64,000 nt of DNA from Defluviitaleaceae bacterium (GTDB taxonomy: Bacteria; Bacillota; Clostridia; Lachnospirales; WRAX01), in NCBI GenBank assembly GCA_009784575.1, contig WRBK01000003.1:46749-110748 (forward strand), read 5' to 3'. The position numbers and the translations under genes were made by a program. Each line of letters begins with the position of its first letter. Position 1 is the stretch's first letter. Positions 23,484 to 28,691 of this stretch are shown one piece after another. The notes under the pieces are model-generated. The model had not been told where the DNA came from and did no database searches. It worked only from the letters and a program-made list of their open reading frames with translations.

Positions 23484-26228
23484 TTATATTAATTTCGCTC
23501 TCGGCGGTTCTTTATCTGTTAGCTTTCGGGTGACAATTTCTTCCACCATATCATATTTAAACATCTGTTCATATACAAGCGCACTATTGATAATGTAATA
23601 TAAATCAGAGGCTTTTTCAAGCAGATGCGGGCGATTGTTCGCAATTTTTAAAGGGGAAGTGGTTATGCTGCCTGAAATATTCTCTATTTCTTCGTTAAAG
23701 TAATACTCCATCTCTTCTCCATAGAAAATTGGTATATGGCATAAGAATAGCCCAAAACGTAGATATTTCATGGATACTTCTGCATAGCCTTCTTCGCCAA
23801 TCGTCCTATAGTAAAAGCTAACGGTGCTGTTTCTACCAGCCTTGCCCCTGTATACAAAGGGCATATTCTTTTCTATATACGGCGAAATTAGATTTTTGTC
23901 TTTTATATCTTTAAAAATCGGCAAAATAATGTTTTCTTCCGTAGCAGCCTTGATGGCTTTTTGCAGTATTTCAGCCGATTGCCCTGTTACTACAGAATTT
24001 TTTATATACACATGTGCCAAAGCATATGATATTAATTCGTCATTACATGCAAAGAATTGACGTTCCATAGCATGCACTGCATCATATTCAGGCATAAGAC
24101 CATTCATCATAATTTCAAAGGATAGATACGCCGCAAAGTCATGTAGGATATCATCTGCGGGCGCAAGTTCTGCCATCTTAGCAAAAATCCCTTGAACGCC
24201 TTTGCTTGCACCATTTCGTGTGCGTATCGCTATTTCTAGTATCTTTGCATGTAGAGCCATGCTTGCTTCACCCATAGCCGCAAGGCTTCTCGCTAGCTCT
24301 ACCCATCCTGCTAAGTTTATGGCGTGGTTTTCTAATACTAGAGCCAGCATAGCCTCGTCATACCTTCCACGCAAAAGTTGCTCGTAAGCTAGAGCCGCAA
24401 GAGACTTTGAACCAGCCGTTGCCGCGGTGCTTGCGCTTGATACACGTTTTATCGCACTAAAGAGATTTTTGTCCGCTATATGATTACCTGCACGTGCTAT
24501 AAGCCGTTTTGCCAAGGCTATTTCACCAGCATGGATATATGTTTGTAGCATTTGCTCAAGGTTCCTTGGGGCTACACGGCTTTCGTCCACATGTTTGTAA
24601 TATTGCACAGCCCTTGGATAATCGCGGTTTTTGGCATAAAAGTTGCCCAATGCCACACGTGTTTGCATTTTAAATGAGCGCGAAATCTGTGTGCTTGCTT
24701 CTGCTCGTTCAAAAACCTTAACAGCAGAAAGAGACAGCTCTGCTGCTTCCATATAGTGCAAGCATAGATTTATCAGCAAATCTGGTGTATCTAGTCCTTT
24801 ATTGAAGAAATAAACCAAAATCTTAACATCAACATTCTCAACCAATTTTTGCATTTTTAGATTGCAATCTATGATATTTCTAAAATTTTCATCAAAGCAT
24901 GTTATTTTTACTTCGTCATATACAGCTAGCTCCAAGCGTATTTTGTCGCCTTTCGCATCATACAATATTTCACCATGCTTATGAATCTCTTGAACAAGAA
25001 CTTGGCTTACGCGGCTATCGTCAAAGCTCAATTCATAAGAAAATAGCAGGTTTTTTAGAGTTTGCTCCGCAAAGTTAATAATGTTCTTATCTACAACGTA
25101 GCCAGCCAACGCCATTTGTAAAGCAAAACGATAAAGGCTATAATAATACCTGCCGTACAGTCTACTTTCTACGGCATGGTAAGCACATTGCATTATGTCC
25201 TCTTTAATACTTTCCAAATATTCCTTGCTTTTTTCATCGCCACCATCTGCACGCGCTTTTTTTAGCACTAGATGGTACACAAAAGGCAACATGTCCATAG
25301 GTGCTGTTCCCATTTTTAGATACTGAGCAACGGAATAGCGACTAACATCCTCTATGCTGTTTTTGTGAGCTGACCGTATCAAAAAATCATACAGCTGAGG
25401 GAAGTGTATCTGCCGCACCTCTGCTTCTTTGTAGTATGCAAAAGCCACCCGCGAAAGGTCATTGCCTATCATTCTGCGTGTGCAAATAATATACAAAATC
25501 CAATCAAGCGGATATATTGAGTATAATTTTTCGGCATCATCAGAATATTTGCGCAAAACATCTTCTACGGCGGCACGATTACGCACAATTATATTGTTTA
25601 TATGATGACCAGTCACTAAAGACCAGCGTATGAGCGGAAGCAAAAGCCTGCCTTGCTCGCCTTGCGGCGGCACATTTTCTAGCGCGCGCGCCAAGCAGAT
25701 ATAGAAATATGGACTTCTATCGCCATTTTTGTATGCTAAGAGCAGATAACCAAGTGCATCACCAAAAGCACCAAAGACACAGCTTGCCGCCGCCATAAGC
25801 ATATAGCCGCATTTCGGGCGACGTTCCCTGCAGTAATCTCGCAAAAGACGATAGCGTTTATTTGCCGCCCTTTCTTTACCTCGCGCTTTTGCGAGCACAC
25901 AATTGAAATACAAATAATGCGCATATAGTGTTGCATCTTGGCTTTTCATTACATTTCGATAGGGTTTTAGAGATGCTATTAGGTCTTCTGCATTGTCGAA
26001 ATGCCCCATCTCATAAGCAATATGGGTACGCAAAAAAACCATGGGTATATCTGATGTGTTTGCGTGAGCTAGCGCGACATAATTCGCCTTATGTAAAAAA
26101 TCGCGCTGTCCACTTATCACATAACCCATATAATAGCGTGTCGCCATCACAAAGGCTGTGACAGAGGATTTATTGGCGTTATAAATCCTCTCATATGCTA
26201 TTATTTTCTTAATTGCATTATTTGCCAT
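23484..26228 (-). CDS. 914-aa orphan protein, mostly alpha-helical-repeat/TPR-like with a small beta-rich C-terminal domain
   Basis: Long uninterrupted ORF whose ATG lies 2 nt after the upstream stop. TPR-like stretches (..RVALGNFYAKNRDYPRAVQYYKHVDES..). C-terminus ..STVSFYYRTIGEEGYAEVSMKYLRFGLFLCHIPIFYGEEMEYYF.. No catalytic motif recognised. Confidence 0.7.
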   Translation of the reverse strand: MANNAIKKIIAYERIYNANKSSVTAFVMATRYYMGYVISGQRDFLHKANYVALAHANTSDIPMVFLRTHIAYEMGHFDNAEDLIASLKPYRNVMKSQDATLYAHYLYFNCVLAKARGKERAANKRYRLLRDYCRERRPKCGYMLMAAASCVFGAFGDALGYLLLAYKNGDRSPYFYICLARALENVPPQGEQGRLLLPLIRWSLVTGHHINNIIVRNRAAVEDVLRKYSDDAEKLYSIYPLDWILYIICTRRMIGNDLSRVAFAYYKEAEVRQIHFPQLYDFLIRSAHKNSIEDVSRYSVAQYLKMGTAPMDMLPFVYHLVLKKARADGGDEKSKEYLESIKEDIMQCAYHAVESRLYGRYYYSLYRFALQMALAGYVVDKNIINFAEQTLKNLLFSYELSFDDSRVSQVLVQEIHKHGEILYDAKGDKIRLELAVYDEVKITCFDENFRNIIDCNLKMQKLVENVDVKILVYFFNKGLDTPDLLINLCLHYMEAAELSLSAVKVFERAEASTQISRSFKMQTRVALGNFYAKNRDYPRAVQYYKHVDESRVAPRNLEQMLQTYIHAGEIALAKRLIARAGNHIADKNLFSAIKRVSSASTAATAGSKSLAALAYEQLLRGRYDEAMLALVLENHAINLAGWVELARSLAAMGEASMALHAKILEIAIRTRNGASKGVQGIFAKMAELAPADDILHDFAAYLSFEIMMNGLMPEYDAVHAMERQFFACNDELISYALAHVYIKNSVVTGQSAEILQKAIKAATEENIILPIFKDIKDKNLISPYIEKNMPFVYRGKAGRNSTVSFYYRTIGEEGYAEVSMKYLRFGLFLCHIPIFYGEEMEYYFNEEIENISGSITTSPLKIANNRPHLLEKASDLYYIINSALVYEQMFKYDMVEEIVTRKLTDKEPPRAKLI

Positions 26229-26230
26229 TT

Positions 26231-27412: not shown

Positions 27413-28691
27413 CAGCATCACCCTCCCCTCGCTCAACCAAGTCTTTTATCAATCGTGTTTGGTAGCGGTTTTGCTCGGCAAAGTCTTCTAGGATGCCTTT
27501 TATCTGTTCTTCACGCGCTGTAGTACCCGAAAGTGCTGTTTTTATGCTATCCGAAATGCCTTCGGCAATTTGATTTCCTGCGCCGCCAAGGTGGTACGCA
27601 ACAATCTTGCCCATGGCATCGCCCATTTGCAATGTTATCTCTTTTAACGAGATTTCGTATGCCGCCACGGCGGATTCCAGAGCTTTTTGATTTTCCATCA
27701 CCAATCCAAGTTCGCCATCCATTGTGGTATTTCTGGTCTCCATGCTTGCCACAAGGACATTTAGCTTATTTACAGCGTTGCTTAGCAGCACAATATCATC
27801 TTTAATTTCTGCGCGGTTATTTTGCATGGTTTTACTAAACTCTGCCATGGTCTCAACTGCTGCTCCAATTTTTTCGCTCGCATTTGTAGCATCTGTAGTA
27901 ACACTCGCAGATTTATCTATAATCAAAGCCCAGCGCGATATCGCGCTGTCCAAAGCTTCATGATTTGCTATGGAGTTTAGCGTTGCATCCAGCCCTTTTG
28001 CCATGGTAGATATATTGGCAGTAATAGCCCCTGCAAATTCAGATTTTATCTTGTTAAGCACCTCATTATACATAGCGGACTGACGCGCAAGGTATTCGTC
28101 CAAATCTTTACCAAAAGTATATACGGCAGATGATATGTCCGTAGGGAAAAGCCGCCCTATATCACGTGCTAATACATACGCCAGAGTAGTTGTGTATCTA
28201 TCCTGCGCCGCATCTATGTCAAAAATGGCAGCTAAAATAATCATCAGTAAAAAAATTGCGGCAGAAAGCATTATAAATTCCACTTGCGCTGTTGCCGCAA
28301 GCACAAAAAGTATCACAAAAGGCAGAAATGCACGCTCCAACAGGCGTATTAGGTTTGCTAGGCTTTTAAAATTAAAGAAATATAGGCGGTTTTTTGTCAT
28401 GGTCATTCGTGCCACATCTAGCGCATCTGTGCGTGCGCCAAGTGCCGCCATTGCGGCATATTCTTTTGCCGCACGTGCAAAAGTGCCGCTTGTTAGCTTT
28501 TCTACGTCGCCCTTAGATTTTATACCCTTGACTGCTCTATTTATCAGAACAATACCTGTGCTAAATGCGCTAAAAAGCACTATGCGAAGTACAAGTGTAA
28601 TAGCAGCAACTACACCAAGCGTAATAGCCATAATGCCCTCTACTTGGCTAAAGCTAGCGAAAAAATCCGTTATCGTTGTAATCAAATCCAC
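27396..28691 (-). CDS. Membrane-anchored coiled-coil protein (first gene of the Hsp70 locus)
   Basis: 431 aa. TM1 GIMAITLGVVAAITLVLRIVLFSAF, a cytoplasmic loop of about 75 aa, then TM2-3 FLPFVILFVLAATAQVEFIMLSAAIFLLMIILAAIF. A helical low-complexity tail of about 270 aa rich in A/S/N/E follows, ending in acidic GEGDADGDST. Confidence 0.7.
   Translation of the reverse strand: MDLITTITDFFASFSQVEGIMAITLGVVAAITLVLRIVLFSAFSTGIVLINRAVKGIKSKGDVEKLTSGTFARAAKEYAAMAALGARTDALDVARMTMTKNRLYFFNFKSLANLIRLLERAFLPFVILFVLAATAQVEFIMLSAAIFLLMIILAAIFDIDAAQDRYTTTLAYVLARDIGRLFPTDISSAVYTFGKDLDEYLARQSAMYNEVLNKIKSEFAGAITANISTMAKGLDATLNSIANHEALDSAISRWALIIDKSASVTTDATNASEKIGAAVETMAEFSKTMQNNRAEIKDDIVLLSNAVNKLNVLVASMETRNTTMDGELGLVMENQKALESAVAAYEISLKEITLQMGDAMGKIVAYHLGGAGNQIAEGISDSIKTALSGTTAREEQIKGILEDFAEQNRYQTRLIKDLVERGEGDADGDST

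Follow-up and report, generated by a model that had tools for sequence, protein, structure and literature searches.

By the rule on which Hsp70 biology is built, both the targeting of the chaperone and the triggering of its ATPase are the work of a J-domain protein. The operon examined here departs from that rule in several ways, and it raises the question of what the three genes at its head contribute. It lies on the minus strand of a 64,000-nucleotide (nt) stretch of DNA from a Defluviitaleaceae bacterium (GenBank assembly GCA_009784575.1, contig WRBK01000003.1, positions 46,749 to 110,748), which we call the window; all coordinates below are positions in it. The three genes under study, g1, g2 and g3, precede four Hsp70 paralogs (H1 to H4), a giant GrpE-like protein and a TPR protein, and this conserved, vertically inherited operon encodes no J-protein in any version examined. 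The original prediction, made from the DNA letters, described the products of g1, g2 and g3 as orphans, candidate specificity, effector or client components of the Hsp70 module that could stand in for the missing J-protein. The reading we prefer, to which we give an even chance, is that they act as a non-enzymatic, membrane-tethered adaptor or scaffold for a multi-Hsp70 machine without a J-protein in termite-gut Defluviitaleaceae. The operon would be an Hsp70 system with accessory proteins other than J-proteins, and the former orphans become a testable set of parts: a split protein, a conserved domain, a tail and an anchor.

The starting point is that g2 and g3 belong to one known family. The g2 protein matches the Pfam family DUF5717_N (PF18984) over profile positions 13-264 of 875 (E 9e-38, 130 bits against a cutoff of 25), and g3 matches positions 337-867 of the same profile (E 1e-26, 93.5 bits against a gathering cutoff of 25) as well as the DUF5717 C-terminal family PF18983 (E 5.5e-21, 75.5 bits against a cutoff of 25). 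Pfam models DUF5717_N as a single polypeptide, whereas here the full 875-position model and the C-terminal model are divided over the two genes. Judged by these profile matches, g2 and g3 together encode a single DUF5717 protein in split form. The label of orphan does not hold, since these two match DUF5717 far above threshold and all three genes have homologs in related genomes. DUF5717 is catalogued only as a DUF, with no function assigned in Pfam; our literature search found no paper on DUF5717 or DUF5716, and its Hsp70, vWA and GrpE themes led to a single comparison (Kaur et al., discussed below).

The family also contains the undivided protein. A HMMER scan of 1.84 billion representative proteins for relatives of g3 and DUF5717 gave 240 family representatives at 50% identity, among which the split form is commoner: most of the best 150 of the 240 are about 900 amino acids (aa) long. 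Fused forms are P0144 (1190 aa), P0198 (1302 aa) and P0201 (1179 aa), in which the g3-like part starts at residue 323-407 and the N-terminus aligns to g2, so that the end-to-end order is g2 then g3. Loci are numbered L001-L020 and L101-L105 where they were anchored on g3, and L-numbers are also used for metagenome loci anchored on H2 (for example L027, L042 and L081); the last of these carries a fused DUF5717 open reading frame (ORF) of 1337 aa, preceded by g1, that has no g2 helical domain. According to the alignment and the AlphaFold models, the split between g2 and g3 falls at the boundary between the third Ig-like sandwich and the first solenoid. Because such natural fusions exist, there is good indirect evidence that the g2 and g3 proteins bind each other physically.

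The layout of the genes points to joint production. The preferred g2 start at 27412 has a Shine-Dalgarno sequence, GGGGAGGG, 8 nt upstream, whereas an alternative ATG at 27418 stands just 2 nt from it. The start at 27412 is also called by NCBI on an identical protein (P0045, 393 aa) and, independently, by the Logan assembly, where it lies 17 nt ahead of the g1 stop. The coupling that had been predicted is accordingly present, with 17 nt (27396..27412) shared by g1 and g2 and a gap of 2 nt between the g2 stop and the g3 ATG; the gene g2 is real, and its predicted length of 394 aa had included the stop codon. The g3 ATG has no Shine-Dalgarno sequence at normal spacing, and together with the 2-nt gap this fits termination-reinitiation coupling at the g2-g3 junction. 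The best sigma-70-like site in a 17.8-kb scan (11500..29300) lies just upstream of g1, which supports the claim that g1 heads the operon. From one promoter and with translational coupling, the three proteins would be made in fixed proportion. No structured RNA in or around the operon matched Rfam. Tight spacing is frequent, though not universal, in orthologous loci: L002 has an 8-nt overlap and a 3-nt gap and L101 a 1-nt overlap, while the gaps are 43 and 47 nt in L001 and 191 and 98 nt in L105. Conservation of three ORFs of such length across genomes is far beyond chance. The features are collected in the table.

Table. Features of the operon and of the g1, g2 and g3 products (positions in the window)
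Feature	Position	Strand	Remarks
g1	27396..28691	-	ORF, GTG start, 431 aa; same gene call in public assembly
g2	26231..27412	-	preferred ATG 27412, 393 aa; listed ORF 26231..27436 from TTG
g3	23484..26228	-	ORF, ATG start, 914 aa
sigma-70-like promoter, TTGATA-17-TATAAT	28752..28724	-	11 of 12 positions match; a consensus match only; 33 nt upstream of g1 start
g1 first transmembrane segment (residues 20-49)	28545..28634	-	Kyte-Doolittle peak 2.5
g1 basic loop (residues 50-120)	28332..28544	-	14 K+R vs 6 D+E; 42% of columns at least 80% conserved
g1 hydrophobic hairpin (residues 121-160)	28212..28331	-	Kyte-Doolittle peak 3.0; about 40 residues with short turn; conserved
g1 helical tail (residues 161-431)	27399..28211	-	heptad-like windows at 255-340
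g2 Ig-like sandwich 1 (residues 19-107)	27092..27358	-	AlphaFold strands; Foldseek ASH/PapD-like Ig arrays
g2 five-helix domain with DPNKER motif (residues 122-179)	26876..27049	-	AlphaFold
g2 Ig-like sandwiches 2 and 3 (residues 188-288, 292-390)	26243..26851	-	AlphaFold
g3 N-terminal alpha-solenoid (residues 1-392)	25053..26228	-	AlphaFold helices
g3 middle beta domain (residues 397-461)	24846..25040	-	AlphaFold; least conserved part of g3
g3 second alpha-solenoid (residues 468-787)	23868..24827	-	AlphaFold; weak TPR match at 525-546
g3 C-terminal beta domain (788-863) and two terminal helices (876-903)	23520..23867	-	AlphaFold
H1, lid-less Hsp70, 561 aa	21788..23473	-	Pfam HSP70 E 3e-70; starts 10 nt after g3
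GrpE-like protein, 629 aa	19871..21760	-	GrpE domain is the last ~130 residues
H2, Hsp70-like, 517 aa	18306..19859	-	matches DUF5716_C (PF18980)
H3, Hsp70, 546 aa	upstream of H4, within 16669..23473 block	-	also matches DUF5716_C
H4, Hsp70 fused to vWA, 699 aa	13897..15996	-	
Fer4 membrane protein, inserted gene	13107..13847	-	
TPR protein, 413 aa as listed (GTG 13165)	11924..13165	-	

The predicted folds of g2 and g3 consist of domains of a kind that bind other proteins. The AlphaFold model of g2 (predicted local distance difference test, pLDDT, 87.2) contains the Ig-like sandwiches that strand patterns had suggested, three in number, and a small helical domain, which is the best conserved part of the protein (34% of columns at least 80% conserved). 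The second sandwich is the least conserved domain of g2 and is missing from the fused P0144. Foldseek against the PDB matches g2 to ASH/PapD-like arrays of intracellular Ig domains in the ciliary central apparatus, and to the SPD-2 domain of CEP192. The g3 model (pLDDT 90.5), a confident one like that of g2, shows two TPR-like solenoids with a beta domain after each; the expected TPR-like architecture and compact C-terminal beta domain are thus both there, with a second beta domain in mid-protein that had not been foreseen. The C-terminal beta domain and terminal helices form the most conserved part of g3 family-wide, with F835 and N881 invariant across 59 sequences. Its Foldseek neighbors in the PDB are the long TPR scaffolds of multi-subunit complexes (Ski3, IFT-A, Ctr9, Naa15), at template modeling scores (TM-scores) of 0.1-0.2.

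As the original prediction had noted, none of the three proteins has a recognizable catalytic motif: Pfam, NCBIfam and PDB profiles gave no catalytic domain or enzyme family for g1, g2 or g3, and neither did Foldseek on the g2 and g3 models. NCBIfam returned nothing for g1 or g2 and, for g3, only TPR_BatC far below its cutoff, and PDB sequence-profile searches with g1-g3 gave generic coiled-coil and TPR matches only. For g2 and g3 the structure searches led to generic Ig arrays and TPR scaffolds. DUF5717 would, on these models, be built of protein-binding modules only: Ig sandwiches, a small helical domain, and TPR-like solenoids with beta caps.

The membrane part of the set is g1, for which we found 17 homologs, all on contigs that also carry DUF5717; their alignment (A5) has 36 invariant columns, and no Pfam, NCBIfam or PADLOC family covers the protein. 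Hydropathy and charge agree with the topology first proposed, namely a transmembrane helix, a loop of about 75 aa, a transmembrane hairpin and a helical tail at the membrane. The acidic N-terminus and the basic loop predict that the N-terminus is outside and the loop cytoplasmic, and a cytoplasmic loop followed by a hairpin predicts that the tail is cytoplasmic as well. That tail had been called low-complexity, which does not fit its conservation: outside the length-variable center at about 251-300, which holds the indels, 31-43% of columns are at least 80% conserved. Against the PDB the tail gave only generic coiled-coil matches, and the sole PHROG match of g1 is a weak coiled-coil one. That this tail might be homologous to the helical N-terminal part of the GrpE-like protein was considered and rejected (hhalign probability 2%). 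We regard g1 as a predicted membrane anchor that is conserved, lineage-specific and optional, and in this lineage its tail would hold the assembly at the cytoplasmic side of the membrane.

What connects these proteins with Hsp70s is gene order. The genome scan used two short peptide patterns, and it started from a closer alignment (A1), the family-wide one (A3) being too diverse for that purpose, so the sample leans to close relatives. The closest of these are metagenome-assembled genomes (MAGs) labelled Defluviitaleaceae (class Clostridia, order Lachnospirales), Clostridiales or Eubacteriales, many of them, judged by sample names, from termite guts; the system is restricted to gut Clostridia, most of which are uncultured and little studied. 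H1 is the next conserved gene in all 22 DUF5717-anchored loci with downstream sequence, and the order g1-g2-g3-H1-GrpE-like-H2-H3-H4(vWA)-TPR recurs in L001-L020, in 17 metagenome loci and in L101-L105, the conserved orthologous loci having the same nine genes. This order, which bears out the predicted link to the Hsp70 genes, holds even where g3 identity is only 23-31%.

One explanation would be that g1-g3 are mere neighbors of the Hsp70 genes with an unrelated function. An Hsp70 cluster does occur without them in 17 loci, and unrelated passenger genes are readily inserted into the operon. We nevertheless find this explanation hardly credible, given that H1 follows DUF5717 in every locus examined, down to 23% identity, and that the junction between g3 and H1 is a 10-nt gap here and a 1-nt overlap in L101. 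Because this adjacency is invariant, we infer that DUF5717 binds H1.

The Hsp70 set itself is unusual. We aligned H1-H4 to the E. coli DnaK sequence, whose key positions agreed on checking. H1, H3 and H4 retain the catalytic motifs, whereas H2 has K70 and the GGGT phosphate-2 loop replaced (GARGL) and is, because of these losses, probably a pseudo-ATPase; H2 and H3 both fall in DUF5716_C, the Pfam family adjacent to those of DUF5717. In DnaK, the residues R167, N170 and T173 and the hydrophobic VLLLD linker mediate J-domain action, as known from DnaK-DnaJ work, and all four paralogs are without them. The alpha-helical lid is missing in H1-H3 and has a vWA domain in its place in H4. Compared with the DnaK-DnaJ-GrpE system, the intact catalytic motifs of three paralogs and the GrpE-domain exchange factor are shared; the differences are the lack of a J-protein in the loci scanned, the lost J-contact residues and linker, the missing or vWA-replaced lids, the pseudo-ATPase paralog, and a GrpE domain that ends a 629-aa protein. 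The remaining N-terminus of this GrpE-like protein, helical and about 500 aa long, matches no family and is far shorter in certain relatives, at 267-308 aa in L001 and L102.

A J-domain was sought directly. A J-domain hidden Markov model (HMM) gave no match at E<=1 in the window or in 105 loci scanned, there was no Pfam DnaJ match, and the family profiles of g1, g2 and g3 contain no J-domain (hhalign probability 0.04-0.15%). The helical domain of g2, whose DPNKER motif resembles HPDKN, was considered as a hidden J-domain and rejected, both because its hhalign probability is below 1% and because the layout is wrong, with five short helices in the AlphaFold model where a J-domain has four, two of them long. 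Taken together, the module looks J-independent.

For the way in which DUF5717 might contact such a module there is a eukaryotic parallel. TPR co-chaperones and receptors such as Hop/Sti1, CHIP, Tom70 and SGTA are non-catalytic and bind the acidic C-terminal tail of Hsp70, and Tom70 is membrane-anchored. DUF5717 resembles them as a non-catalytic TPR protein encoded beside an Hsp70 with a conserved ...VDELY end, and differs in having Ig and beta domains that they lack; the sequence likeness is that of generic TPRs, and a TPR carboxylate clamp was not identified in DUF5717. In our proposal DUF5717 would be an adaptor or scaffold dedicated to the Hsp70 machine, with H1 as its most direct docking partner. 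The machine would comprise three active lid-less Hsp70s, one of them with vWA, a pseudo-ATPase Hsp70, the giant GrpE-like exchange factor and the TPR protein. Two contacts are candidates: the conserved C-terminal beta domain of g3, and a TPR groove that might hold the ...VDELY C-terminus of H1 as EEVD is held in eukaryotes. As the most obvious non-ATPase partners, g1 and DUF5717 are the place to seek the target and the location of the machine.

In all orthologs examined, those from loci without DUF5717 among them, H1 ends in ...TELSVDELY followed by 0-2 residues. Its last codons (21788..21820) could encode a TPR-binding tail.

Several findings weigh against the adaptor reading. We scanned metagenomes with H2 as anchor and obtained 80 loci, 34 of them with enough upstream sequence to judge; in these contigs adjacency is scored in cis, the rest of the genome lying outside the contig. 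DUF5717 adjoins H1 in 17 of the 34, and the other 17 have no DUF5717 within 10 kb, even by the family-wide HMM. Their Hsp70 set may work without DUF5717, or the genomes in question may carry a DUF5717 gene at another site. The gene g1 is missing from four divergent loci (L101 and the fused-type L102-L104), and in L027 g1 is directly followed by g3, with g2 absent. The structural matches of g2 and g3 are generic, with TM-scores of 0.1-0.3; docking on the H1 tail would rest on a single conserved C-terminus, and H1 is highly conserved along its whole length; adjacency and fusion bear on binding only indirectly; and the present data fit an adaptor and a client alike. The original prediction had named absence of the three genes from otherwise conserved loci as grounds for doubt, and part of that pattern is what these 17 loci and the four without g1 display.

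The composition of the loci without DUF5717 is informative in its own right. Their neighbors are unrelated (S-layer/CAP proteins, DUF5724/DUF4132, recF-gyrB, MerR regulators, ABC transporters), and the cluster is often fragmented, either to H1-GrpE-like-H2 alone or to GrpE-like-H2-H3-H4 without H1, although some carry H3 and H4 besides H1, GrpE-like and H2. H1 is as conserved there as elsewhere, with its C-terminus unchanged. The TPR protein after H4 tracks DUF5717, being present in 12 of 13 DUF5717 loci against none of the four DUF5717-less loci with H1 upstream; a fifth DUF5717-less locus with H4, L042, has the TPR protein, and there H1 and GrpE-like are missing upstream. Short clusters without DUF5717, g1 and the TPR protein are L047, L051-L053, L056, L058-L061, L063, L065, L066, L068, L077, L093 and L095. 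Among the genes under study, only g3 is constant.

DUF5717 is never seen without the Hsp70 set, whereas Hsp70 sets that have no DUF5717 in cis do occur. This asymmetry suggests that DUF5717 needs the Hsp70s and not the reverse, and that g1-g3 are accessory rather than what makes the ATPases work. Since the module appears equally J-independent where DUF5717 is absent, DUF5717 cannot, on this comparison, be a general, obligatory substitute for a J-protein. With the lack of J-domain similarity and the 17 of 34 loci without DUF5717, that part of the original prediction is not supported, while an adaptor, specificity or client component is still the best reading of the genes.

The same asymmetry also suits a different relationship, in which g1 and DUF5717 are the client: a membrane-associated lattice or coat that dedicated Hsp70s assemble or dismantle, much as Hsc70 uncoats clathrin. 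The architecture consists entirely of structural modules (Ig, alpha-solenoid, beta-sandwich), the Foldseek neighbors come from large assemblies (IFT-A, nucleoporins, the ciliary central apparatus), coupled translation implies fixed stoichiometry, and DUF5717 always accompanies Hsp70s that also occur without it. We still regard this as unlikely, as the TM-scores are low and the matches generic, g1 is dispensable in several lineages, no beta-propeller or other coat hallmark was seen, and self-assembly would have to be assumed. Its fullest form, a bacterial coat or lattice of DUF5717 and g1 that private J-independent Hsp70s would build and take apart by analogy with clathrin, is a long shot. The combination of Ig, alpha-solenoid and beta-sandwich parts is reminiscent of adaptor, IFT and ciliary scaffold proteins. 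If true, this form would mean that prokaryotes have their own equivalent of coat remodelling by Hsc70, and that the Hsp70 cycle can be triggered in a new, J-domain-free way.

For an adaptor around an Hsp70 core, a particular pattern of evolutionary rates would be expected. At the most distant loci, identity is 19-27% for g1, 29-36% for g2 and 26-34% for g3; the GrpE-like protein (26-38%), H2 (37-40%) and the TPR protein (32-36%) are comparable, whereas H1 (73-79%), H3 (71-76%) and H4 (75-81%) are far more constant. HisS and AspS, encoded next to the operon, are intermediate overall (60-85% identity): relative to L002 they are 60% and 73% identical, with H1 at 86% and g1-g3 at 43-50%. By these identities there are two rate tiers, in which the active ATPases are more constrained than the aminoacyl-tRNA synthetases and g1-g3 less, as expected from sequences of fast-evolving adaptors around a constrained ATPase core.

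Rapid divergence of accessory parts around a constant ATPase core would also suit a conflict system. In an anti-phage or abortive-infection system, the Ig and TPR modules would sense the invader, the Hsp70s and vWA would act as a threshold switch driven by nucleoside triphosphates, and g1 would be a membrane-damaging effector. The nearest described example is theme 2 of the GAP1-N2 systems (Kaur, Burroughs, Iyer and Aravind 2020, PMC7159879), in which an HSP70 and GrpE occur with a further, truncated HSP70 and with an FNIII-repeat protein that has TPR or DnaJ fused to it. DO-GTPase and GAP1 are the defining pair of the GAP1-N2 systems, and membrane components and vWA domains occur in the wider class (PMC7159879). 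Compared by description, the two share an HSP70 with GrpE and an extra atypical HSP70, and the Ig-like sandwiches combined with TPR in DUF5717 may correspond to the FNIII-repeat protein joined to TPR; a vWA domain and a membrane component are present here too. The differences are that Pfam finds no GTPase or P-loop domain among the genes from g1 to the TPR protein, that the Hsp70 paralogs number four instead of one or two, and that the chromosomal context here is stable and housekeeping. No unassigned globular protein that could be GAP1 is left in the operon besides g1, itself membrane-bound and helical.

Searches of defense collections gave little. PADLOC-DB v2 left g1-g3 unmatched, and the Hsp70s and the TPR protein had weak matches to the candidate models PDC-M61B and PDC-M71B, of which PDC-M61B on the Hsp70s may be counted in favor of a conflict role. 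A known anti-phage defense system was rejected, as no PADLOC family matched g1-g3. Overall we think a conflict role quite improbable: the operon has no DO-GTPase and no evident GAP1, each of its nine genes being accounted for, there is no known effector domain or variable effector slot, and H1, H3 and H4 are better conserved than aminoacyl-tRNA synthetases.

The genomic setting also speaks against that role. The divergent hisS-aspS pair (31195..34235) lies about 2.5 kb from the operon, and the same pair flanks the operon in L002, L004, L006 and L009; neighbors at other loci are pheST, nusA-infB, radA and gyrB. Such stable housekeeping neighbors indicate a vertically inherited chromosomal operon and not a mobile island. 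A tblastn search with g3 against 72,556 plasmid and 50,697 phage records gave no match, the IMG/VR viral contigs likewise yielded nothing, and a phage, plasmid or viral origin was rejected on these grounds.

Genes other than the conserved nine vary. In the window the inserted gene encodes the Fer4 membrane protein; the listed TPR ORF overlaps its end by 59 nt, so that translation of the TPR protein probably begins at a start codon further downstream. Where relatives lack Fer4, H4 is directly followed by the TPR gene. Passenger genes between core genes differ by genome, others being found in L001, L002, L005, L009, L013, L014 and L016; elsewhere they encode HAD, DUF2238, SAM methyltransferase, MBL-fold hydrolase, NUDIX, Uma2 endonuclease, PIN toxin and glyoxalase proteins, and L005 has three passenger proteins of about 500 aa from no known family. 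Passenger genes as functional effectors were rejected as a default, because the set is mixed and varies among genomes.

The 672-nt gap between H3 and H4 (15997..16668) holds only short broken ORFs and may be the remnant of a passenger gene; a 53-aa ORF at 16001..16162 resembles, by eye, the end of an acetyltransferase. The gap also contains a site resembling a promoter (16060..16031) and a hairpin resembling a terminator (16474..16457), which suggests that H4-Fer4-TPR may form a transcription unit of its own. Finally, L004 and L018, from the same MAG bin (Emb289P1bin130), carry two different g3-H1-GrpE-like copies, with H1 94% and the g3 C-terminus 82% identical, which reflects either two operon copies or mixed strains.

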